Shown in pieces: positions 1 through 10,074 of a stretch of DNA of 64,000 nt. The translations under genes and the position numbers were made by a program. How positions within the stretch are numbered: position 1 is the stretch's first letter; every line of letters starts with the position of its first letter. Below the pieces are notes generated by a model. The model was given only the letters and a program-made list of their open reading frames with translations. It searched no databases and was not told the origin of the DNA. The stretch is taken from the IMG/VR virus record IMGVR_UViG_3300024339_000005; one strand, written 5' to 3'. This stretch comes from a virus.

Positions 1-204
1 TTCTGTGGTATCGGCGCCCACTGGCTAAAAAATTTAGTTGCTGTATTCACCCTAGTAAAGTTTAACGGGATGCCAATTTACAGTTTTCTTCTGCATTCTA
101 ATTTTTTCCAGTGGTTAGACTTCCACCCAGTCCCATATTTCAGAGACATTCTGATTTGTTTTAGTTGCTGAAATCATCCCTAATTTCGTAATCTTCATTA
201 TCTT

Positions 205-234
205 GATCATACTACGTTTTTTGTGTTTCGTCAA
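205..234 (-). promoter_or_regulatory. sigma70-type early promoter
   Basis: TTGACG-17-TATGAT(C). Confidence 0.75.
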
Positions 235-276
235 TACTTTTTTTGAGAAAATATTGACATACCTGTTTCAGAGAAT

Positions 277-351
277 TGGTACTCCCGGCTGGACTTGAAC
301 CAACATCATAACCGTTATGAGCGATAGGCTTTACCGTTAAGCTACGAGAGC
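277..351 (-). tRNA. tRNA CAT (Met or Ile2)
   Basis: Cloverleaf, loop CT-CAT-AA, T-loop TTCAAGT, CCA. Confidence 0.9.
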
Positions 352-356
352 AATCT

Positions 357-432
357 TGGAGCGGCCAGGGAGAATCGAACTCCACTCAGTACGGGTTGGA
401 AACCCGACGACTGATCCCGTCAGCTTGGCCGC
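357..432 (-). tRNA. tRNA-Gly(TCC)
   Basis: Loop TT-TCC-AA, TTCGATT, CCA. Confidence 0.9.
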
Positions 433-435
433 AAT

Positions 436-509
436 TGGTGCCGCTACGAGGAATCGAACCCCGAAATTCTGATTACAAAACAGACATTATGCCATTTAAT
501 TATAGCGGC
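436..509 (-). tRNA. tRNA-Thr(TGT)
   Basis: Loop TT-TGT-AA, CCA. Confidence 0.92.
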
Positions 510-517
510 GTTATTTC

Positions 518-772
518 TTATTTCTCGGCTGGTCCTTCAATTGCGTTGATAACTTGTTCAACAGGATCAAACCCCGCTTCAATCGCAGCGGCTTCGGCAA
601 TTAGGTCTTGACCTTTATCACCAAATACTTTTTGTGGTGCGAGCCAGCGAATGCTTCTTGCAAGACGGGTAGGGCATTTTGTAATTACGCCACCGTTTGC
701 TAGGAATTCGGCTGTCAGTCTTTCAATTTCTTTTCGTTGTTGAATTTTCTCAATTGAAGGCGATACCATCAT
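518..772 (-). CDS. small protein with SutA-like RNAP-binding motif
   Basis: AEFLANGGVITK resembles the SutA segment EEFLARGGKVQ; own promoter. Confidence 0.5.
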   Translation of the reverse strand: MMVSPSIEKIQQRKEIERLTAEFLANGGVITKCPTRLARSIRWLAPQKVFGDKGQDLIAEAAAIEAGFDPVEQVINAIEGPAEK

Positions 773-801
773 TGTCTCTCTCCGATGTTTCAGTATTTAT
801 T

Positions 802-831
802 GATCATAGTCTATTTGGGTCGAAATGTCAA
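802..831 (-). promoter_or_regulatory. sigma70-type early promoter
   Basis: TTGACA-17-TATGAT(C). Confidence 0.8.
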
Positions 832-837
832 TACTTT

Positions 838-1119
838 TTATCCGCCCATATAAATCTGGTCAAGCATTTCTTTGAAGGCAGATACCTTTTCAACACGATT
901 GGGCCACAAGATATATTCCTTTTCAGGGTTTTCACAGAGGTTCCGCAAGAGTGGTTGAATGGCATTATACAAATTATTCAACTTCTCGTCGGTCTCCTCT
1001 AAATCAAGTTGTGTTTCTGAGGCAGCCAGCGTCGCTGTTTCCGAGGCTGCGACCGCTTCTGTTACTACGGTCAGGTCATCGCCATCAACGAGTGAAAAAC
1101 CAAAATCAAATTCTTCCAT
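838..1119 (-). CDS. T4-like hypothetical protein
   Basis: FDFGFS N-terminus and NPEKEYILWPNR motif. Confidence 0.75.
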   Translation of the reverse strand: MEEFDFGFSLVDGDDLTVVTEAVAASETATLAASETQLDLEETDEKLNNLYNAIQPLLRNLCENPEKEYILWPNRVEKVSAFKEMLDQIYMGG

Positions 1120-1320
1120 CTAAATCTCCAAGTCTATTTTGTTGCCCATGTGGTCATACTTAGGCAATTTCTTTTCGTCTTTATTTATGTCATCAGGTGG
1201 CGTAGGTGGTTCGACTTTCCGCCTTTGCTCAATCCTTTCGTCATATTCAAATGTTGATCTTGTTTTGGCTAATTTCATTGTCTCTCTCAAATTGGTTACG
1301 ACAGGCACCGTCGCGCCCAT
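1120..1320 (-). CDS. hypothetical protein
   Basis: ORF abuts the next gene. Confidence 0.5.
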   Translation of the reverse strand: MGATVPVVTNLRETMKLAKTRSTFEYDERIEQRRKVEPPTPPDDINKDEKKLPKYDHMGNKIDLEI

Positions 1321-1364
1321 CGTCTTAGTATATCCTGCTCTTGGACCTACAGATATACCGTTAT

Positions 1365-1438
1365 TGGTGCCACTAGATAGAATCGAACTATCATCTATCC
1401 CGTACCAGGGGATTGCATTGCCATTGTGCTATAGCGGC
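1365..1438 (-). tRNA. tRNA-Thr(GGT)
   Basis: Loop CT-GGT-AC, CCA. Confidence 0.9.
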
Positions 1439-1761
1439 AGTAATTCTTGTGGTAAGTCGACCATATCAATCAATGTGATTTTATCGCCGTACAGACCTTG
1501 TATTTTATCCCATATCCCAGCCTGCGCCATTGACATTCTTTCAGCGCCAACATGACATTTATAAATGCTACCCGAATGACCGTGGAATAAATAACAATCA
1601 TCTTCTTCAAGGTAACTTGTGTAGGCGATACCAGAATTGATTCTCCATGAATCGCCGTCGAGATATCCACCACTCCAACCACCAAGAACTTTGTAAAGAA
1701 CCTCGTCGTCGTCGTTTTCAATCCGCATAATTTTCCAGTGGTGCGGGTAATATTCAGTCAT
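1429..1761 (-). CDS. conserved phage hypothetical protein
   Basis: YKVLGGWSGGYLDGDSWRINSGI; stop codon lies inside tRNA-Thr. Confidence 0.8.
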   Translation of the reverse strand: MTEYYPHHWKIMRIENDDDEVLYKVLGGWSGGYLDGDSWRINSGIAYTSYLEEDDCYLFHGHSGSIYKCHVGAERMSMAQAGIWDKIQGLYGDKITLIDMVDLPQELLPL

Positions 1762-2140
1762 TTTCGGCCTCCGATTTTTCTTTCCAGCCTGTATCACATG
1801 ATTTTTTTAAAATCCATATTACCGATAATGGCAACAAGACCAAAGACATTGAAAGAATTTCTGATTGAAAATATGTTAAACCAATTACCATTCCTATCAT
1901 AATAGACGCGCCGGCGACCAGCGGGCCAATCCCGATAACAATAAACGCCAATAAAATGAGAGGAATTGTGACAGCGCGTGCCAGCCATAAGAATAATTTG
2001 TTTCGGCAATATTCAGTTTTTGTTTTTGACTCATCTTCTAAATCAGAAAGATACTGCATAGGTATGGTCAAAAAATTGCCCACAGGTGTTATAAACGTAT
2101 CCACATAATCTTCGTAATCGTCAAATCCAAACATTTTCAT
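1754..2140 (-). CDS. membrane protein
   Basis: Several hydrophobic segments. Confidence 0.65.
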   Translation of the reverse strand: MKMFGFDDYEDYVDTFITPVGNFLTIPMQYLSDLEDESKTKTEYCRNKLFLWLARAVTIPLILLAFIVIGIGPLVAGASIMIGMVIGLTYFQSEILSMSLVLLPLSVIWILKKSCDTGWKEKSEAEND

Positions 2141-2152
2141 TCTCTCTCAAAT

Positions 2153-2237
2153 TGGCGAACCCTGAAGGAGTCGAACCTTATGCCATCCACCCAACTCTAA
2201 GGTCCGGTTTAGAAGACCGGTGTCGGGAACAGGGTCC
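2153..2237 (-). tRNA. non-canonical tRNA-Arg(TCT)-like RNA lacking a D-arm
   Basis: CCGGT-CTTCTAA-ACCGG arm, T-arm and CCA; no D hairpin; long variable region. Confidence 0.75.
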
Positions 2238-2254
2238 TAAAATTTATTCTGTGT

Positions 2255-2501
2255 CAGCCGTTTCAGAAACAACATGATCTTCACGGTGTGCCATTACAGC
2301 AATTTTGTATCGACGGCCAAATTCTTCAATTTTTTCAGCCAGCGCCAATTCAATTTCAGAATCTTCGCTATGCATCCAGCCGTTTCAGAAACAACATGAT
2401 CTTCACGGTGTGCCATTACAGCAATTTTGTATCGACGGCCAAATTCTTCAATTTTTTCAGCCAGCGCCAATTCAATTTCAGAATCTTCGCTATGCATCCA
2501 G
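2255..2501. repeat. 122-bp perfect tandem duplication
   Basis: 2255-2376 equals 2377-2498; CAG microhomology at the junction. Confidence 0.95.
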
Positions 2502-2743
2502 GCATTTTTCAGCCCTTCGCTTTCGATATAGTTAAGCAAGACTTCCTCAAGGTCGAGAGGCGGAACCTCAATCGACATTTGTTCGTCGTCGCCTTGTGCG
2601 GTCATGCAAATATACAGTTTGGGTTTTCCGGCAATGGAATCCATACCGATGGTCGCACTAACATCAAGTTCAAATTTCATAATCAATTCCTTAGTTGGCA
2701 GCCCCGCGTGGATTCGAGCCACGATTTCCTGTGTCAGAGACAA
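2294..2743 (-). CDS. hypothetical protein, C-terminus frameshifted by the duplication
   Basis: Without the duplication it would end ETADTE* near 2245. Confidence 0.6.
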   Translation of the reverse strand: MSLTQEIVARIHAGLPTKELIMKFELDVSATIGMDSIAGKPKLYICMTAQGDDEQMSIEVPPLDLEEVLLNYIESEGLKNAWMHSEDSEIELALAEKIEEFGRRYKIAVMAHREDHVVSETAGCIAKILKLNWRWLKKLKNLAVDTKLL

Positions 2744-2921
2744 GCGTTTTGCCGTTAAACTACAGGGCTAATTTCTAATGCAACAAATTTTCAAGGCTGA
2801 ATAATCAGCCCAAGGACAACAACCACGGCGACCCATAACTTGACTTGAAACATCAGCCAATAGGTATCATGCTCGTTCCATTTCATAATCAAATCTCTCT
2901 TTTGTTTCTCTATCTTAATTT

Positions 2922-2951
2922 GATCTTACGCTATTTTTCGGCAAATGTCAA
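2922..2951 (-). promoter_or_regulatory. sigma70-type early promoter
   Basis: TTGACA-17-TAAGAT(C); near-identical to 10055-10104. Confidence 0.8.
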
Positions 2952-2956
2952 TACTT

Positions 2957-3139
2957 TTAAGCGAGATAATTCATTTGGTCGAGAGGCATTTCGACAATTT
3001 CTGGTGAGTTGATTGGGTAGCGAGTTTTATCACGGGTAGCGAGTGCGTCTTTTGCTGCACCTTCGCTATGGAATACGCCGAAGACATATAAGCCTTCATG
3101 CTTGACATTTTCAGTCAGTAGGAATACGGTGACAGGCAT
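2957..3139 (-). CDS. hypothetical protein
   Basis: AGGAG RBS and upstream promoter. Confidence 0.65.
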   Translation of the reverse strand: MPVTVFLLTENVKHEGLYVFGVFHSEGAAKDALATRDKTRYPINSPEIVEMPLDQMNYLA

Positions 3140-3174
3140 CGGCTAACTCCTTTGTGCGGTATCTCTTATATAGT

Positions 3175-3204
3175 GATCTTCGCACAAAGCAAGGCAAATG
3201 TCAA
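3175..3204 (-). promoter_or_regulatory. sigma70-type promoter
   Basis: TTGACA-17-GAAGAT(C). Confidence 0.6.
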
Positions 3205-3221
3205 GTCTTTTTTTTGAGAAT

Positions 3222-3307
3222 TGGCGGATAGCGGAGTATTCGAAACTCAAACATTTCTGTTCCCTTCGGTTAGCAACCGAGCCTAGAACCTATCTAGTTC
3301 ACTATCC
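3222..3307 (-). tRNA. tRNA-Ser(GCT)
   Basis: Loop TT-GCT-AA, long variable arm, G73-CCA. Confidence 0.9.
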
Positions 3308-3627
3308 ATTTCTCTTTTCTTTACAGCTTTTCGGTATTCTATGTCATGGCGGAGCTTTTCAAGGATATGTTTCAAACCTTTGTTAGCATTACCAGGCATC
3401 TTATGCGTTTCAGAACTTTTGATGATTGTATGAATATCGAAAAAACTGATTTGACCACCAATGGAACATTCTTCAATCAACCCGGCTATTTGCCATGAGG
3501 TTCTACCCCAACAAACACCGCGTTTCTTTTCTTGTCGCAATGATTCATCATTGACCAGATTTTTCACGGCATCAGCATTAAACATAGTTTGCGCTAATTT
3601 TGATTTCGGGTCCATCATAAACTCCAT
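3283..3627 (-). CDS. hypothetical protein
   Basis: 114-aa ORF; stop codon lies inside tRNA-Ser. Confidence 0.6.
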   Translation of the reverse strand: MEFMMDPKSKLAQTMFNADAVKNLVNDESLRQEKKRGVCWGRTSWQIAGLIEECSIGGQISFFDIHTIIKSSETHKMPGNANKGLKHILEKLRHDIEYRKAVKKREMDSELDRF

Positions 3628-3636
3628 AAAAAGTTG

Positions 3637-3714
3637 CCGCAGTCGCGTACCTGCTCCCTTTCGGGTATGCGCCTTAGTGGTGTCTGGGCCTTACTATCGG
3701 AACCCCAAACTGCG
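3637..3714 (-). ncRNA. structured intergenic RNA with SRP helix-8-like hairpin
   Basis: Closing stem GCAGT/ACTGC; CCC-GAAA-GGG-AGCAG. Confidence 0.35.
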
Positions 3715-3722
3715 ATCTCTTA

Positions 3723-4280
3723 TTAAGCGGCTACTTCAACGCCGCCTGTCCATTCACCCAACCATGGTATCCATGATTCGTGGGCCACCTTCAATGGGTA
3801 CATACGACGAAGGTCGAGTAACTTCCAATATGAAGGCGTGTATGGCTTATGCTTTGGCTTCCAACGACCCTTAGGTGCGAAGTCGCTTTTTGCGTTGTTG
3901 CATGTTGCACAACAAGCCACTACGTTATCCCATACGTTGCGACCACCCTTTGATTGTGGGTGAACGTGGTCAACGGTGATGTTGGTCAAGGTCAGACCCT
4001 TCTCACAGTAGGCGCAGACGCCATGATCTCTGTAGTAAAGGTATTCAGACGTTAGACCAATGATACGTGGGATGTTGGTGTATTGCTTCCGCATGATAAC
4101 AGAAGGCCAAGCCATCTGTAGCGTTGGTGTTTGAATCATTCGGTCGTATTCTTCAACAACAGAACATGTACCATTAACGATTCTTGTCACAGCATCTTCA
4201 GCCGGAATCCATTCCGGTATCGGCAAAAGTTGGATGGGTGTCATATCCGCATTTAATACTAATGTTCTTAAACCAATCAT
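3723..4280 (-). CDS. HNH endonuclease (McrA-like)
   Basis: CAYC...TVDHVHPQSKGG...WDNVVACCATCNNAK. Confidence 0.92.
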   Translation of the reverse strand: MIGLRTLVLNADMTPIQLLPIPEWIPAEDAVTRIVNGTCSVVEEYDRMIQTPTLQMAWPSVIMRKQYTNIPRIIGLTSEYLYYRDHGVCAYCEKGLTLTNITVDHVHPQSKGGRNVWDNVVACCATCNNAKSDFAPKGRWKPKHKPYTPSYWKLLDLRRMYPLKVAHESWIPWLGEWTGGVEVAA

Positions 4281-4310
4281 GATAACCCCCTTTGCCGAAA
4301 TTTCCAGTGT

Positions 4311-4318
4311 TATAAATA
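4311..4318 (+). promoter_or_regulatory. T4-type late promoter
   Basis: TATAAATA upstream of the GIY-YIG remnant. Confidence 0.6.
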
Positions 4319-4378
4319 ATGTTAGTCGCGGTGTATCAAGCACCCACTAACCCTAATGCTTTATGGAGCAATCAGCAT

Positions 4379-4480
4379 ATGACTATTTATTACACCTACA
4401 GAATCACTTCCAAAACTACTGGTCAGCATTATTATGGCGTTCGCTATGCGAAAAATTGCCATCCTCATGGTTGGATTTGA
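4379..4480 (+). pseudogene. truncated GIY-YIG homing endonuclease
   Basis: MTIYYTYRITSKTTGQHYYGVRYAKNCHP, then runs into an antisense tRNA fragment; GGAG RBS. Confidence 0.75.
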
Positions 4481-4502
4481 ACCAACGACCTACGGCTTTC
4501 AA
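4463..4502 (-). pseudogene. tRNA 3'-half remnant
   Basis: GTTGG-TTCAAAT-CCAAC T-arm; no matching 5' acceptor strand, no CCA. Confidence 0.7.
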
Positions 4503-4535
4503 TGCAAAATTAGTGGCTGAAGGTATCCTAAAAAT

Positions 4536-4611
4536 TGGCAGCCCCTGTAGGATTCGAACCCACAACCACCTGACTCAAAATCAGGCGCACTACCAATTGT
4601 GCTAAGGAGCT
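4536..4611 (-). tRNA. tRNA-Gln(TTG)
   Basis: Loop TT-TTG-AG, CCA. Confidence 0.88.
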
Positions 4612-4617
4612 AGAATT

Positions 4618-4693
4618 TGGTGGACCCGGTCAGATTCGAACTGACAACCTTTTCCGTGCAAGGGAAATACACTCCCAATTGTGTTACGGGCCC
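4618..4693 (-). tRNA. tRNA-Ala(TGC)
   Basis: Loop CT-TGC-AC, G3:U70, CCA. Confidence 0.92.
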
Positions 4694-4699
4694 ATGAAT

Positions 4700-4773
4700 T
4701 GGAGCGACCGGTCGGATTCGAACCGACATATTCTTGTTGGCAACAAGAGATTCTACCTTTGAATTACGGCTGC
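4700..4773 (-). tRNA. tRNA-Gly(GCC)
   Basis: Loop TT-GCC-AA, U73-CCA. Confidence 0.92.
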
Positions 4774-4779
4774 ATTGTT

Positions 4780-4857
4780 TGGTACCCATAGTAGGATTCG
4801 AACCTACAAACACAAGTTTTTAAGACTGGCTGCGTTTCCTGGTTAGCATATACGGGC
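4780..4857 (-). tRNA. tRNA-Leu(TAA), short variable arm
   Basis: Loop CT-TAA-AA; 5-nt variable region. Confidence 0.85.
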
Positions 4858-4863
4858 AGAATT

Positions 4864-4939
4864 TGGTACCCATAGGCGGAGTCGAACCCCCAAACACCTG
4901 CTTTTGAAACAGGCCGCTTTGCCATTTGCGTATACGGGC
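4864..4939 (-). tRNA. tRNA-Leu(CAA), short variable arm
   Basis: Loop TT-CAA-AA. Confidence 0.85.
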
Positions 4940-4942
4940 ATA

Positions 4943-5269
4943 TTAAACGCTGAAGGATGAACCGCAACCGCACTGATTTTTGTGCATGGGATTATTGAAC
5001 ACAAATCCCGATTGAAGTAATTCCTCAACATAATCTATCTCTGTCCCGAACAGGAACAATTGAGATTTTGAATCTATCAATACTTTGATGCCATGCTGAT
5101 CTAAAACTTCATCGCCTTCCTCAATCTCGTTTGAGAATTCCATGAAATTTGAAAAGCCAGAACATCCACCCGATTTCACGCCCAAGCGAACAAACAAATA
5201 ATCCTTACCTTCTAGTAGGGATTTCATTCGGGTAGCGGCGTTCTCGGTTATCGTTGCTATGTCATTCAT
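4943..5269 (-). CDS. iscA: A-type Fe-S cluster carrier (IscA/HesB family)
   Basis: GGCSG and CGCGSSF motifs. Confidence 0.95.
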   Translation of the reverse strand: MNDIATITENAATRMKSLLEGKDYLFVRLGVKSGGCSGFSNFMEFSNEIEEGDEVLDQHGIKVLIDSKSQLFLFGTEIDYVEELLQSGFVFNNPMHKNQCGCGSSFSV

Positions 5270-5274
5270 ATTGG

Positions 5275-5282
5275 TATTTATA
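5275..5282 (-). promoter_or_regulatory. T4-type late promoter
   Basis: TATAAATA just upstream of iscA. Confidence 0.7.
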
Positions 5283-5289
5283 TGTCCTT

Positions 5290-5378
5290 CTTATAAACAT
5301 GCGGGCGTTCTACCATTAAACTAGCCAAGGTTTCCCCGGAGTGGGACTCGAACCCACATTTCCCGCTAACTCTATAAG
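5290..5378 (-). ncRNA. YrlA-like Y RNA (circularly permuted tRNA mimic)
   Basis: T-arm precedes D-arm; acceptor stem closed by a loop; anticodon stem GCGGG/CCCGC extended by CTTATA/TATAAG. Confidence 0.75.
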
Positions 5379-5466
5379 TTCTCCTAAAGCTGATTATCTA
5401 CCGCGTGTAGTCGCGTCCATAGGATAGGCGTGTATTGACGCCTCGTTTTACTTCTGACAAGTATTT

Positions 5467-5542
5467 TGGTGCTAGGAGAGAGATTCGAACTCCCACCGCA
5501 TGGTTCTTCAAACCATCGCTCTACCGTTGGAGCTACCCTAGC
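5467..5542 (-). tRNA. tRNA-Phe(GAA)
   Basis: Loop TT-GAA-GA, CCA. Confidence 0.9.
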
Positions 5543-6111
5543 GAATATTTTTCAAAATCTAAGTCTTCAATAATCAATATATTTTTATCTTTATGTTGTT
5601 TTTGAACTTCAATCATTTTTTCTTTATCGTTGCCCCACCAATATCCTTTTATTTCTATGAATAAATTTAATTCGGGTAAGAAAAAATCTGGAGTATAATG
5701 TTTTTCTTTATCTTTTATTGTATATTTCCAAGGCTTACACCGTTCCCATTCAATTTTTCTTTCTTCTAAAAACATAGCAAACTTTTGCTCCCATGTTCCT
5801 TGAACTTTTTTACCGGCGACTGTAAACCATTTAGAACGTCCGCCGCGATTATTTGTGGATTGAATTATTGATAGTCGTTTGTTCGCTTCGTCGTTGGGCC
5901 TATTAGGACCATATTTTTCCAAAGCAAGTTTTCCAGCTTCGCTTAAAGTTCTTGCCACAATAAAACCAAGTCTATTTGCTCTCATATGGTCACTTTGAGT
6001 CAAAGGCGAGACAGACGAGATTTCTCTCATAGATTTTCCCTGGTTGTAAAGAACAGCATAACGCTTTGCCCTTTCAATCCATTTTGTTTGTTCATCATAT
6101 TTTAATTTCAT
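5533..6111 (-). CDS. PD-(D/E)XK putative homing endonuclease
   Basis: WEQKFA...YTPDFFLP...FIEIKGYW; AT-rich insert in the tRNA array. Confidence 0.85.
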   Translation of the reverse strand: MKLKYDEQTKWIERAKRYAVLYNQGKSMREISSVSPLTQSDHMRANRLGFIVARTLSEAGKLALEKYGPNRPNDEANKRLSIIQSTNNRGGRSKWFTVAGKKVQGTWEQKFAMFLEERKIEWERCKPWKYTIKDKEKHYTPDFFLPELNLFIEIKGYWWGNDKEKMIEVQKQHKDKNILIIEDLDFEKYSLG

Positions 6112-6116
6112 ACAAG

Positions 6117-6124
6117 TATTTATA
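6117..6124 (-). promoter_or_regulatory. T4-type late promoter
   Basis: TATAAATA immediately before the endonuclease ATG. Confidence 0.75.
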
Positions 6125-6134
6125 TAAAACAGAA

Positions 6135-6174
6135 ATTACAAACCGGCGCATTAACCATAACTGCCTACAATGCA
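6135..6174 (-). pseudogene. tRNA 5'-half remnant cut in the anticodon loop
   Basis: GCATTG-TA-D arm-CCGGT-TTGT, followed by the endonuclease cassette. Confidence 0.6.
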
Positions 6175-6177
6175 AAT

Positions 6178-6252
6178 TGGTCGGAAACCCCGGAGTCGAA
6201 CCGGGTATTGCCTGCTCCCAAAGCAGGAGGATTACCGTCTTCCTCGTTTCCG
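6178..6252 (-). tRNA. tRNA-Pro(TGG)
   Basis: Loop TT-TGG-GA, CCA. Confidence 0.92.
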
Positions 6253-6258
6253 TTGATT

Positions 6259-6335
6259 TGGTACCCCTGGAGAGACTCGAACTCCCAACACCTCGGACCT
6301 AAACCGAGTGACTCTTCCAATTGGCCTACAGGGGC
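6259..6335 (-). tRNA. tRNA-Leu(TAG), short variable arm
   Basis: Loop TT-TAG-GT. Confidence 0.88.
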
Positions 6336-6342
6336 ATATGTT

Positions 6343-6429
6343 TGGTTGCGGAAACCCGATTTGAACGAGTGTCGTGAAGGTTATGAGCCTACCGCTGGGG
6401 CCTGATTACCACTCCAGCATCATTCCGCA
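6343..6429 (-). tRNA. tRNA-Met(CAT), initiator-like acceptor end, enlarged D-arm
   Basis: GCGG...CCGCAACCA; loop CT-CAT-AA. Confidence 0.8.
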
Positions 6430-6452
6430 TCATGTTGTATTTAGTTCTTGGT

Positions 6453-6523
6453 TGGTGCCGGAGCTAGGAATCGAACCTAGAACATATTCCGTATGAGAGA
6501 ATAGTGAATCCAATTCCACCGAC
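6453..6523 (-). tRNA. tRNA CAT with reduced D-arm
   Basis: Loop CT-CAT-AC, T-arm, CCA; about 71 nt. Confidence 0.75.
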
Positions 6524-6526
6524 ATA

Positions 6527-6795
6527 ATAGCTTCGGTCACTTTCGCAGACCGACAACGGATAGTTATTCAGGTGGTTCCCTTTTTTTGTATTGTCCATGG
6601 CTCATCAGGAAATCGTTATTCACTATCGACCCTAGAGGGATTAACCACCGTGGCCCGTTTTCTTAAATTGGCTTTGCGAGGTGTTCATTTAAGACCGACT
6701 ACTTTTGCGTTTCGAACCGCGCTTTCGTCACCCATACCCCGGCTCATTTCGCCGGTACTTTATCACTCGGGAGCTACCCGGGATTATTAAGCTAT
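6527..6795 (-). ncRNA. about 270-nt structured ncRNA of unknown family
   Basis: Terminal stem ATAGCTT/AAGCTAT, several internal hairpins, no credible ORF, flanked by tRNAs. Confidence 0.55.
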
Positions 6796-6803
6796 CGCAA
6801 ACT

Positions 6804-6881
6804 TGGCGATCTGGAAGGGACTCAAACCCTCATACACCCGGGAGACAACCGAGGACATTAGTTCATTTATGATACCAGACC
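6804..6881 (-). tRNA. tRNA-Asp(GTC)
   Basis: Loop TT-GTC-TC, G73-CCA. Confidence 0.88.
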
Positions 6882-6890
6882 ATGATTTTT

Positions 6891-6919
6891 GGGGACAGTT
6901 TAAAGACTTGCCCTGGTCT
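6891..6919 (-). ncRNA. small H-type pseudoknot
   Basis: AGAC-CAGGGCAA-GTCT-TTAAAC-TGTCCCC. Confidence 0.45.
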
Positions 6920-6953
6920 GTATTTGGACGGATTTTGCTCCGCCGGGCGTGTT

Positions 6954-7027
6954 TGGTACCCGCAGGAAGAATCGAACTTCCATATTTCGGTTATCAGCCG
7001 AATGTTCTACCGTTGAGCTATACGGGC
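6954..7027 (-). tRNA. tRNA-Ile(GAT)
   Basis: Loop CT-GAT-AA, CCA. Confidence 0.92.
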
Positions 7028-7032
7028 ATAAT

Positions 7033-7106
7033 TGGCGAAGGTGCGAGGAATCGAACCCCGGTCCGCAGGTTTGGAATCTGCTATTCTACCACTGAAATAC
7101 ACCAAC
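7033..7106 (-). tRNA. tRNA-Trp(CCA)
   Basis: Loop TT-CCA-AA; U.U mismatches at 2:71 and 3:70. Confidence 0.85.
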
Positions 7107-7112
7107 ATAAAT

Positions 7113-7187
7113 TGGCGAAGGTGAGAGGAATCGAACCCCCGACGCTCGGTTTTGGAGACCGACGCTCTACCACTGAGCTACACCAAC
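7113..7187 (-). tRNA. tRNA-Trp(CCA), second copy
   Basis: Loop CT-CCA-AA; same U.U mismatches. Confidence 0.85.
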
Positions 7188-7193
7188 ATGAAT

Positions 7194-7288
7194 TAGTTAT
7201 CCCCTTCGGAATCGAACCCACATCGCTCTCTAATCTGGAGACTGTGCGGTTTATAAAACCGGTGTTTTACCGTTAAACTATAGGGGTA
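7194..7288 (-). tRNA. tRNA with TAT anticodon and long variable arm; degenerate 3' end
   Basis: CCGGT-TT-TAT-AA-ACCGC; no CCA. Confidence 0.6.
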
Positions 7289-7292
7289 TTAT

Positions 7293-7363
7293 TGGTGGCT
7301 TGGAGGGAGTTTCACCCTATCTTTTCCCTTATTAGGGGACTGCTTTGATTAAGCTACCGCGCC
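7293..7363 (-). tRNA. atypical tRNA with AAT (Ile) anticodon
   Basis: Loop CT-AAT-AA; T-loop TGAAACT; A73-CCA; two acceptor mismatches. Confidence 0.6.
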
Positions 7364-7977
7364 ATAGTTCGACCTTTGCGCCATCCTTCTGGAATAACAT
7401 CGGTCTTTTTGATCTTCTTGGTTTCTTGGTTGTTTGTTATCCACATGGAACCGAACTGGGAACTTTGTTCACCTGTGTTTCTTCCTTTAAGGCATTTACT
7501 TATCTTCTTTTTAGTATCTTCTGTATGTTTTTTGCCTTTGAAATTATTATATTTTGCCAAGCCGTCTATATGAACATTAGCAAAATTTATTTTTGATGTT
7601 CTATGTCCCGCGGCCACTCTGGATGGATGATTTTTGACTTGACCAGAATTTCGTTTATGAAAGTTTTCAGACTTCGACCAATATTCTCTATTGAGATATG
7701 ACCAGCCACCATGACCACCAGAACATAAATTATAGGTGTCTTCTCGTTGGCAAAATTCTTCTGTAACCAGTTCCGCTTCCTTGGCATTCATTTCTTGTTC
7801 GGTATCAAATACATGAAGGATTTTCTTTTCAAGGACTTCTTTACCATGTTTTTCGATAACTCGTCTTATGAGTTTACCAGAACCCATATAGCCATCATCC
7901 AATTTTTTTGTTTGATGTTTACCGATATAGATTTTACCGGTTCTGGTATCGGTCGTTTGATAGATCGTATAGAACAT
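7354..7977 (-). CDS. GIY-YIG homing endonuclease (Seg-like, NUMOD3)
   Basis: TIYQTT...IYIGKH...YMGSG; GKKHTEDTKKKIS. Confidence 0.92.
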   Translation of the reverse strand: MFYTIYQTTDTRTGKIYIGKHQTKKLDDGYMGSGKLIRRVIEKHGKEVLEKKILHVFDTEQEMNAKEAELVTEEFCQREDTYNLCSGGHGGWSYLNREYWSKSENFHKRNSGQVKNHPSRVAAGHRTSKINFANVHIDGLAKYNNFKGKKHTEDTKKKISKCLKGRNTGEQSSQFGSMWITNNQETKKIKKTDVIPEGWRKGRTMAR

Positions 7978-7982
7978 AAGAT

Positions 7983-8031
7983 ACCTCGTTTGTCTAATAG
8001 TCTTACATATGGCTATTTAGACAAACGAGGT
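7983..8031 (-). promoter_or_regulatory. RBS-sequestering hairpin with embedded late promoter
   Basis: 15-bp inverted repeat covering GAGG; TCTAAATA at 8014-8021. Confidence 0.8.
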
Positions 8032-8040
8032 TCTCTATGT

Positions 8041-8113
8041 CGACCCGACGAGACTCAAACTCGCATTATCCACATTGAAAGTGTGGTTTCCTATTTCATT
8101 TAGAAGACGGGTC
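8041..8113 (-). tRNA. tRNA-Glu(TTC), no encoded CCA
   Basis: Loop CT-TTC-AA. Confidence 0.85.
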
Positions 8114-8118
8114 GGTAT

Positions 8119-8206
8119 TGGAGGAGAACAATGTAATCGAAACATCGGGGCTACTAACCACCGGCACGGTATTCAACACCGCTTTGCCACCTTGGCGCTG
8201 CTCTCC
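8119..8206 (-). tRNA. tRNA-Ser(TGA)
   Basis: Loop GT-TGA-AT, long variable arm, CCA. Confidence 0.82.
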
Positions 8207-8213
8207 ATGAATT

Positions 8214-8290
8214 TGGCTCCTGTGACACGGCTCGAACGTGTAACTTCCGGCTTAACAGGCCGACTCCCCTCCCAATAGGGACCCACAGGA
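8214..8290 (-). tRNA. tRNA-Asn(GTT)
   Basis: Loop CT-GTT-AA, G73-CCA. Confidence 0.9.
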
Positions 8291-8298
8291 AAAAACTT

Positions 8299-8375
8299 TG
8301 GTACCCGGGATAGGATTCGAACCTACATAAATCACACCGTGTAAAGGTGCTGCTTCCCCATCAAGCCAACCGGGC
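8299..8375 (-). tRNA. tRNA-Val(TAC)
   Basis: Loop TT-TAC-AC, CCA. Confidence 0.88.
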
Positions 8376-8381
8376 AAAGTG

Positions 8382-8473
8382 TTTGTTATTACTACCGCCT
8401 ACTAGCATTTTGTTGGATACCGCACCATCGGCGTCCAGAATGTTGGTGCCTAGTAGACAGTAGAAATAACAAA
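8382..8473 (-). ncRNA. long imperfect hairpin RNA
   Basis: TTTGTTATT/AATAACAAA and CTACTGTCTACTAG/CTAGTAGGCGGTAG; G.U pairs favour the minus strand. Confidence 0.55.
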
Positions 8474-8552
8474 TTTATCACAAACATTGCGCGACTGGAG
8501 GCAGGCGAAATCCTCTGGCTACCACACGTCCCTTGTGGATGGTCGCTAACTT

Positions 8553-8631
8553 TGGAGGATACGGAGGGAATCAAACCCTCGAATACACGGTTTAAGAGAC
8601 CGTTGGTATAGTCACCACTACCTTCGTATCC
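8553..8631 (-). tRNA. tRNA-Lys(CTT)
   Basis: Loop CT-CTT-AA, CCA. Confidence 0.85.
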
Positions 8632-8640
8632 ATATATGTG

Positions 8641-8704
8641 CTGTAATCCTTGTTGTTTATTCGCTATTATTTTATAATAGTTCGATATTCAACAAGGATT
8701 ACAG
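8641..8704. repeat. inverted repeat with 15-bp perfect arms
   Basis: CTGTAATCCTTGTTG...CAACAAGGATTACAG. Confidence 0.85.
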
Positions 8705-8706
8705 AA

Positions 8707-8784
8707 TGAGGACCGCCTGGGAATCGAACCCAGATCTAACAAACTTAAAAGGATTGCCCTATAGCCACTACTAGGAAGCGGTCC
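8707..8784 (-). tRNA. tRNA-Lys(TTT)
   Basis: Loop CT-TTT-AA; no CCA. Confidence 0.8.
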
Positions 8785-8866
8785 ATTAATTTTTGGGGCG
8801 GGAGGTTTAATGCACCGTTCCCCGTAAGTGCAACGTTTGAAGCTAGGCCACAACGCCATCTCTTTT

Positions 8867-8940
8867 TGGGGCGGAGCCGGGAATCGAACCCTGGTCTCTT
8901 GATTCACAGTCAAGAATTCTGCCACTGAACTAGCAACGCC
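8867..8940 (-). tRNA. tRNA-His(GTG)
   Basis: Loop CT-GTG-AA; G-1:C73; acceptor mismatches. Confidence 0.85.
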
Positions 8941-8950
8941 ATATTTGAAT

Positions 8951-9027
8951 TGGGGCTTCTGACAGGATTCGAACCTGCATTATGTCTCCTTCGTAGGGAG
9001 GTGCCAAATCCATTTGACTACAGAAGC
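8951..9027 (-). tRNA. tRNA-Arg(ACG)
   Basis: Loop CT-ACG-AA. Confidence 0.9.
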
Positions 9028-9032
9028 ATGAT

Positions 9033-9117
9033 TGGTGCATCGGGAAGGAATCGAACCTTCAAAGTAAAAAACGGGAGATTTACAGTCTCTTAGGCTCACC
9101 ACCTGCCTAACCAATGC
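9033..9117 (-). tRNA. tRNA-Tyr(GTA)
   Basis: Loop CT-GTA-AA, long variable arm. Confidence 0.9.
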
Positions 9118-9125
9118 ATATAAAA

Positions 9126-9227
9126 TAAACGCTAGAACGGAATCGAACCGTTTCTATTCCCAACTTTACACCAGTAGCCTACACATTCCCTTGGGAAAGT
9201 TTTGTTGTGTAGAACATCAAGCGTTTA
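9126..9227 (-). ncRNA. tRNA-like RNA with greatly enlarged D-arm, no CCA
   Basis: TAAACGCT/AGCGTTTA closing stem; AACGG-TTCGATT-CCGTT T-arm; CTACACA/TGTGTAG arm. Confidence 0.55.
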
Positions 9228-9385
9228 TAAAAAGGGGGAACTCGACGCTTCGCCAAAAGCGGAATTCAACCCAGTAATTTTCAGAGAAAGGGGAGTTGAA
9301 CCCCTTTGATAGAAATTAGTTCGGTGTCGACCCCTTACTAACTTCCGAAACATTCAAGTTTCTTAACACGCCCGCACCCTTAATT

Positions 9386-9486
9386 TGGCAGCCATAACAG
9401 GAATCGAACCTGTATTCGGTATTCGCAAGATATACCGGACTTTCTTACTTGCGGCTTAAAAGTCAGCCCCCAATGGGCATAGGCTA
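9386..9486 (-). tRNA. non-canonical tRNA-like RNA, anticodon unclear
   Basis: T-arm, G73-CCA, long variable arm, elongated anticodon arm, irregular acceptor stem. Confidence 0.55.
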
Positions 9487-9491
9487 TAATT

Positions 9492-9567
9492 TGGAGAGCA
9501 TGGTCGGAATCGAACCGACTTCAATTTCGCTTTGCAGGCGAAGACCTTACCATTCGGCATCACGCTC
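9492..9567 (-). tRNA. tRNA-Cys(GCA)
   Basis: Loop CT-GCA-AA, U73-CCA. Confidence 0.9.
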
Positions 9568-9571
9568 ATTG

Positions 9572-9776
9572 TAAACAGTTTTGAAGAAAGGTGATCCGGG
9601 GCTCCGCACCCTCCATATGTCTAGTAATTACTCTCCGCCGTTTGCAACCGACTTTGAATTCTAATCATATGCCCTCTAGTGACCCTCATATGTAAACCTC
9701 TGGAAACATACTTGTTACGGACTCTAGCAGTTTATTCCTCGTAGATTGTGGAACCACATTTCATCAAAAATGTTTA
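9572..9776 (-). ncRNA. about 200-nt RNA with long terminal stem (6S-like size)
   Basis: TAAACATTTTTGATGAAATGTGGTTCC pairs with GGATCACCTTTCTTCAAAACTGTTTA. Confidence 0.55.
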
Positions 9777-10074
9777 TTTAACCAATTCTCTGCTATCGGT
9801 GTCCACATCAAAGATGCTTCGTTGCCCTCCAGACAGGCCCTACCTCACTCACAGCCGCAGGTCGCTGTACTCGTTTACTTCTGGGTTTTTTACGTCTTTG
9901 CTGACTGCTACATGAAACCCCAGGATTCTGATTTCATAATCGTTCTCTATTTATTTTCTGTGTCCATAACTATCAGCCGAACGATTTGCTTCTAGTAGTT
10001 TTAACGGACTAACTCTTGACCAATCTCTTTCGTTCTCTCCTCTAACTCTCTCGTTTGTTTCTCTATCTTAATTT

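Follow-up and report, generated by a model that had tools for sequence, protein, structure and literature searches.

A 64,000-nucleotide (nt) stretch of viral DNA, IMG/VR record IMGVR_UViG_3300024339_000005 (hereafter the window, numbered from its first letter), carries an array of transfer RNA (tRNA) genes in which several open reading frames (ORFs) run into the tRNA that follows them and end on a stop codon inside it. The array occupies positions 277-9567 of the minus strand and comprises 27 tRNAs according to ARAGORN at default settings, with more at relaxed thresholds. It also contains small ORFs as well as one gene each of the HNH, endonuclease-I-like and GIY-YIG types. The phage to which the window belongs is uncultured, marine and T4-like. 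The DNA polymerase encoded by it shares less than 50% identity with every record of the phage collection, the top matches being cyanomyoviruses, and positions 1-10000 gave no nucleotide match when compared by megablast with 50,697 phage records. A 139.7-kb Joint Genome Institute (JGI) metagenome contig represents the same genome (99.98% identity).

An earlier note, made by reading the letters of this DNA, had described four ORFs that end inside the next tRNA, three of them exactly on the TAG formed by tRNA nucleotides U8-A9-G10. The coordinates proved right in every case (Table 1). ORF 1761-1429 closes with CCG CTA TAG, and this TAG (1431-1429) is U8-A9-G10 of tRNA-Thr(GGU). ORF 6111-5533 closes with CTA GGG TAG, where the stop codon (5535-5533) is U8-A9-G10 of tRNA-Phe. 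The last codons of ORF 7977-7354 are GCG CGG TAG, and the stop codon (7356-7354) occupies positions 8-10 of a tRNA-like element with the anticodon AAU. This element has two acceptor-stem mismatches (G4.A69 and C5.A68), a non-canonical T loop (UGAAACU) and a D loop without GG. The fourth frame, ORF 3627-3283, stops at a TAG that forms positions 23-25 of a tRNA-Ser(GCU)-like cloverleaf. It does end 25 nt into the cloverleaf, but Rfam gave no match to that structure even at E<=10, ARAGORN called it only at the 80% threshold, and the ORF is without homologues. The claim of four ORFs ending inside tRNAs is thus correct as to position, but the Ile(AAU)-like and Ser(GCU)-like elements both lie under default detection thresholds. 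Two of the overlaps are of the textbook kind, one involves a degenerate tRNA, and the fourth is weak.

Table 1. Features of the tRNA array discussed in the text (window coordinates)
Feature	Position	Strand	Evidence and remarks
tRNA-Thr(GGU), canonical	1365..1438	-	ARAGORN default; Rfam 62.7 bits, above gathering threshold
110-amino-acid (aa) gene, conserved phage family of unknown function	1429..1761	-	GGAGG ribosome-binding site before ATG at 1761
tRNA-Phe(GAA), canonical	5467..5542	-	ARAGORN default; Rfam 57.2 bits, above gathering threshold
192-aa endonuclease-I-like (PD-(D/E)XK) putative homing nuclease	5533..6111	-	Pfam Phage_endo_I 37.6 bits, above cut-off; PHROG 15137, E=1.9e-18
Degenerate tRNA-like element, anticodon AAU	7296..7363	-	Rfam 37.1 bits, above gathering threshold; ARAGORN only at 80% threshold
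207-aa SegB-like GIY-YIG homing endonuclease	7354..7977	-	BLASTP against T4 SegB: 40% identity, full length, E=9e-45; PHROG 314, E=3e-42
5' untranslated hairpin of the SegB-like gene, in which the ribosome-binding site GAGG is paired	7978..8038	-	61-nt leader, -27 kcal/mol, z=-5.4
tRNA-Ser(GCU)-like cloverleaf	3222..3307	-	Long variable arm, G73, CCA; minimum free energy fold is a type-II cloverleaf, -27.9 kcal/mol
110-114-aa orphan ORF	3283..3627	-	Plausible GGAG ribosome-binding site 6 nt before internal ATG
IscA-like gene	4943..5269	-	Own stop codon 3 nt before tRNA-Leu(CAA) 4939-4864; tight packing, no overlap
84-aa gene	518..772	-	Own stop codon 8 nt before tRNA-Thr(UGU) 509-436

Judged by their homologues, ORFs 1761-1429, 6111-5533 and 7977-7354 are genuine genes, and ORF 3627-3283, for which the search gave no homologue except the ORF itself, is a weak case. 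The protein database yielded 408 relatives of ORF 1761-1429, ~105-115 aa long and with an invariant GGWSGGYLDGD core in common, and a peptide-pattern search of IMG/VR gave none. The earlier note had called ORF 6111-5533 a nuclease and ORF 7977-7354 a GIY-YIG protein, and both assignments were borne out by homology. The former matched several endonuclease PHROGs in addition to the Pfam family listed in Table 1. Its homologues are likewise found in tRNA arrays; the distance from the end of the gene to the following tRNA is 2 nt in one of them (tRNA-Leu) and 241 nt in another (tRNA-Glu). The latter is a homologue of T4 SegB over its full length, and in the alignment its C-terminus (...PEGWRKGRTMAR) matches that of SegB (...PEGWFKGRKMKF) residue for residue. 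In Pfam its NUMOD3 match was above the cut-off and its GIY-YIG matches were below theirs. The SegB-like gene is flanked by tRNA-Glu (8114-8039) on one side and by the AAU element on the other.

Two observations concern the surroundings of these nuclease genes. The conserved T-loop motif recognised by T4 SegB is missing from the AAU element, and the defects of this element could be those of a decayed target, could confer self-immunity to a T-arm-recognising SegB, or could stem from a chimeric junction. Upstream of the endonuclease-I-like gene, a T4 late-promoter-like TATAAATA at 6117-6124 (-) ends 5 nt before the ATG, where no obvious Shine-Dalgarno sequence is present; the message of this gene could be near-leaderless and late.

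To place the overlaps in context, 112 IMG/VR contigs were picked solely by an 18-nt tRNA D-arm motif, which gave a background sample of 577 tRNAs. A junction was counted wherever an ORF of 80 aa or more lay upstream of a tRNA on the same strand and within 300 nt of it. Among 135 such junctions the ORF overlapped the tRNA in 11, and in 3 it ended exactly on a TAG at positions 8-10 (an offset of -10). The nucleotides themselves are common, as TAG was present at positions 8-10 in 332 of 625 sampled phage tRNAs. The background ORFs that overlap a tRNA include ordinary genes with Pfam support, namely CpeT (on TAG 8-10 of a tRNA-Thr), a carbamoyltransferase, UvdE and a PQ-loop protein, together with an HNH/NUMOD1 gene and a SegB-like GIY-YIG gene. 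Compared with this sample, the window was enriched for stops at offset -10 (3/7 junctions versus 3/135; Fisher p=0.0014, or 0.01 with default-called tRNAs only), although the window had been chosen after the feature had been seen. The enrichment for which the earlier note proposed a test is present in the counts, but it is qualified by this post hoc choice and by the frequency with which the phage overlaps its genes in general. Overlaps were found at 21 of 67 gene-gene junctions in the window (ORFs of at least 100 aa), and at least 12 of these 21 are of the classic 1- or 4-nt type. Beside this rate, compared here without a statistical test, the rate of stops inside tRNAs does not look exceptional. 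The phage genome is tightly packed throughout the window. TAG is also its rarest stop codon, terminating 12 of 68 ORFs, and 4 of these 12 are the array ORFs described above, which fits a stop codon borrowed from the tRNA.

The arrangement is not conserved among homologues. Relatives of ORF 1761-1429 at 51-54% identity have their own stop codons. One of them ends with TAA TAA, 75 nt before a tRNA-Thr(UGU) (L007), and in another the TGA stop codon overlaps the ATG of the next gene (ATGA; L010). The tRNA overlap was kept solely in a 99%-identical variant (L011), which makes it a recent, lineage-specific trait of this gene. For the SegB-like family, the 80 best IMG/VR loci (L132-L211) were collected. 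With few exceptions these genes are located in tRNA arrays, and most begin 25-66 nt past the upstream tRNA. Distinct junctions at which a tRNA follows within 300 nt numbered 45. At 29 of the 45 junctions the gene ends within -40 to +20 nt of the next tRNA, and at 12 it overlaps the tRNA. A TAG at positions 8-10 serves as the stop codon at just 5 of the 45 (~11%), each time in a different tRNA (Ile, Pro, Asp, Val and Ala). A sixth such case, on a tRNA-Leu, came from the background sample (L074), so that the same junction was found in six independent IMG/VR lineages. The seventh is from a cultured phage, Rhizobium phage RHph_TM3_3_6, whose 195-aa SegB homologue ends ATG GGC TTG TAG on positions 8-10 of a tRNA-Ala. 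This gene (L130:1501-2088; MN988524.1 135101-135688) is intact and is without annotation in GenBank, and the tRNA overlap may be the reason why it escaped annotation. In T4 itself, segB stops at a TAA of its own, 5 nt upstream of a tRNA-Arg whose positions 8-10 read TGG.

Sites from which the endonuclease genes are missing were also sought. No relative without the endonuclease gene turned up in which an empty site could be seen. A metagenome scan for homologues of the IscA-like gene placed these mostly outside tRNA arrays (15 tRNAs in 62 loci) and yielded no endonuclease-free site. An exact 25-mer from the tRNA-Phe of the window had no match in IMG/VR.

In the window, the leader hairpin of the SegB-like gene holds the ribosome-binding site GAGG in its 3' arm. 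Across 61 distinct leaders of the family, the median folding energy was -19.3 kcal/mol (calculated over 77 nt), z was below -2 in 39 of 61 (mononucleotide shuffles), and the ribosome-binding zone was mostly paired in 45 of 61. The folding predictions indicate that the control conserved across the SegB-like family is a hairpin over the ribosome-binding site, and not the stop codon in the tRNA. Several of the SegB-like genes in L132-L211 instead bear TATAAATA 5-6 nt before the ATG.

The reading that best accounts for these data, to which we assign a probability of about 60%, is that stop codons inside tRNAs are a by-product of genome compaction and of homing-endonuclease cassettes wedged between tRNAs. 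It is preferred because homologues of ORF 1761-1429 at ~50% identity keep their own stop codons and because gene-gene overlaps are common in this phage. That the overlap is a by-product is further argued by its sporadic occurrence among homologues, its presence on non-nuclease genes and its agreement with the general packing of the phage. Simple compaction using the common TAG at positions 8-10 had been offered in the earlier note as the alternative to its own proposal, and it is this alternative that fits best, given how often phage tRNAs carry TAG there and how tightly the genome is packed.

Some consequences follow directly from the geometry. A stop codon at tRNA positions +8 to +10 cannot survive a cut by ribonuclease P (RNase P) at +1, and no message can hold both the intact ORF and the matured downstream tRNA. 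Between ORF and tRNA there is no room for a terminator or a spacer, and no minus-strand terminator was found between the overlapping ORFs and their tRNAs. From this we propose the following course of events. Free-standing endonuclease cassettes would wedge into the few bases that separate neighbouring tRNA genes. Such a cassette would consist of a short leader with a hairpin hiding the ribosome-binding site, followed by the ORF and by nothing after it. The ORF would extend to where the next tRNA begins, and an in-frame T8-A9-G10, if there, would serve as its stop codon. The array would be transcribed as long precursors, as in T4, and the cut by RNase P at +1 of the tRNA would strip the stop codon from the upstream message. 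Normal product would then come solely from ribosomes that trail the polymerase closely and are done before the cut. Ribosomes that come later would be left stalled at the new 3' end, and transfer-messenger RNA (tmRNA) of the host or the phage would rescue them and tag the product for degradation. In this scheme, RNase P probably trims a nuclease output that is already strongly repressed, as a by-product and not as an evolved switch.

The phage could supply part of this rescue itself. A permuted two-piece tmRNA of the alpha type is encoded at L216:16880-17239 (+), on the same contig but outside the window, ~26 kb beyond its position 1. It scored 89.1 bits against RF01849 and 91.9 bits against RF04321. 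Its tag, as read by ARAGORN at the 95% threshold, is ANDNRFAFEAFAIAA and ends in AIAA. This tmRNA points to a host among the Alphaproteobacteria. In another IMG/VR phage, the tmRNA at L004:4750-5119 is likewise permuted (tag ANDSEYRLAA); it lies 1.3 kb downstream of a GIY-YIG homologue.

The earlier note had favoured a different view, in which tRNA maturation removes the stop codons and could in this way restrict the output of toxic nucleases or couple it to ribosome rescue. In its selective form, the overlap would exist because RNase P makes the nuclease message stop-less, and output would be confined to the earliest ribosomes or would depend on the capacity of tmRNA or ArfA. The logic is sound and has published precedent: the hypothesis was put forward for segB of T4 and the endonucleases of T5 (PMC2330249), arfA messages cut by RNase III and a truncated lacI message are regulated in a comparable manner (PMC3985003), and tight repression of homing endonucleases is known (PMC2988022). 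Several of our own counts weigh on the same side, and hence against a mere by-product of packing. Overlap with the following tRNA is commoner in SegB-like genes than in generic ORFs (12/45, 27%, versus 11/135, 8%; p=0.002). SegB-like genes also end more often at offset -10 (5/45 versus 3/135; p=0.02), and of the 7 whose frame continues into a tRNA with TAG, 5 are in the TAG frame, where one third is expected (p=0.045). A tmRNA of its own, with a tag ending in AIAA, would suit a phage whose lifestyle is rich in stop-less messages. Taken together, these comparisons are suggestive, not compelling, of selection for the short overlap or its consequences. Against such selection stands the low share of distinct SegB-like junctions that use the tRNA TAG. 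Many SegB-like genes have their own stop codon 0-17 nt upstream of the tRNA, some even before tRNAs that carry TAG. One of the three solid cases, ORF 1761-1429, is not a nuclease and has homologues without the overlap, and housekeeping-type genes overlap tRNAs likewise in other phages. The p-values of the enrichment are also modest and were obtained post hoc. Selection for throttling or for sensing of ribosome rescue was thus left unsupported, and we regard control through stop-less messages as an unlikely explanation of the overlaps.

A wider version of the same idea would treat the homing endonucleases of tRNA arrays, above all the SegB-like family, as cassettes that lack a stop codon and take a portable one from the near-universal U8-A9-G10 of any tRNA upstream of which they insert. 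RNase P would act as a timer that makes the messages stop-less and, in this phage, the phage tmRNA would dispose of late products, which together would form a general throttle on selfish nucleases, coupled to RNA processing. We consider this broader scheme improbable.

The coupling might also run in the reverse direction, with ribosomes that terminate at +8 to +10 unfolding the 5' part of the tRNA and thereby delaying or lowering its maturation, so that the overlap tunes the yield of tRNA and not of protein. Judging from the size of the ribosome footprint, a terminating ribosome would have to cover the acceptor and D arms, and the hairpin that keeps translation of the SegB-like gene low would also protect tRNA maturation; a comparable argument has been made for intron splicing versus translation of I-TevI (PMC2988022). 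However, the SegB-like gene is followed by a degenerate tRNA that may be of no importance as such, and we think that such a role is decidedly improbable. That the ORFs or tRNAs are not real and nothing overlaps is very improbable, as this could apply only to the two weak elements (ORF 3627-3283, without a homologue and with a tRNA missed by Rfam, and the degenerate Ile(AAU) element), whereas three ORFs show strong full-length homology with C-termini aligned to their relatives, and the canonical tRNA-Thr and tRNA-Phe already refute it for two junctions.

A few further features of the array were recorded. The tRNA-Ile(UAU) at 7196-7288 (-) is 93 nt long and has a 22-nt insert within its variable region, and a tRNA-Ser(UGA) at 8119-8206 (-) was called by ARAGORN only at the 90% threshold. 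Positions 2255-2507 form a tandem duplication with a period of 122 nt, which is also present in L212 and L214 and is a single copy in the variant L213. Between tRNA-Phe and the IscA-like gene, a weak Rfam match to YrlA (Y RNA-like) was obtained at 5273-5389 (-), with 25.2 bits and far under the gathering score.

The whole is a well-documented case of a known packing habit and not a new mechanism. The arrangement of a stop codon inside a tRNA is not new either, as it is preceded by the annotation of T5 and by the SegB paper of 2008. In our literature search, U8-A9-G10 was described nowhere as a recurrent stop codon, and stop codons in phage tRNA genes were not addressed beyond the SegB paper. 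There is a practical consequence for annotation, since pipelines that forbid overlap between coding sequences and tRNAs drop real genes, as exemplified by the unannotated SegB homologue of RHph_TM3_3_6. If tRNA maturation does strip stop codons from upstream messages, the tRNA clusters of phages would offer a natural system that links RNA processing, ribosome rescue and the control of selfish nucleases.

A related use of tRNAs is the tRNA punctuation of animal mitochondria, where excision of the tRNAs sets the 3' ends of the messages at or within the stop codon. In contrast to the phage array, partial stop codons are completed there by polyadenylation, and bacteria are not known to repair messages in this way. 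Regulation through stop-less messages is established for arfA (by RNase III) and for lacI (PMC3985003). These systems resemble the proposed fate of the array messages in that the stop codon is lost, through an endonuclease or by truncation, and tagging by tmRNA sets the protein level (PMC3985003). They differ in that the effect was shown there by experiment, whereas in the window it is predicted from the geometry of the sequence and would be exerted by RNase P on a tRNA.

The closest parallels are found in T5 and T4. In the tRNA region of T5 (RefSeq NC_005859), four same-strand coding sequences, among them two for HNH homing endonucleases, are annotated as ending inside the next tRNA: hegC by 14 nt, hegD by 23, T5.057 by 6 and T5.069 by 24. 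This is a phage of another family with other nuclease families, and its stop codons lie at tRNA positions 4-6, 12-14, 21-23 and 22-24 and not at 8-10. In T4, segB belongs to a tRNA precursor of ~1.75 kb, and a stable hairpin occludes its translation start (Brok-Volchanskaya et al. 2008, PMC2330249). It was proposed that processing of this precursor severs the segB message between its last sense codon and the stop codon and thereby limits expression (PMC2330249), processing being one of several layers that restrain homing endonucleases (reviewed in PMC2988022). The SegB-like gene of the window, a full-length homologue with 40% identity, likewise lies between the tRNAs of a T4-like phage. Both genes have a hairpin that sequesters the ribosome-binding site, and both ORFs end right at the 5' border of the tRNA that follows. 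The difference is that T4 segB ends with its own TAA 5 nt before tRNA-Arg, whereas the stop codon in the window is located inside the body of a degenerate tRNA-like element, so that its loss on 5' maturation would be obligatory. Because the stop codon lies inside the tRNA, the window would, if tRNA maturation removes it, provide a cleaner test case for the hypothesis put forward for T4 segB in 2008.

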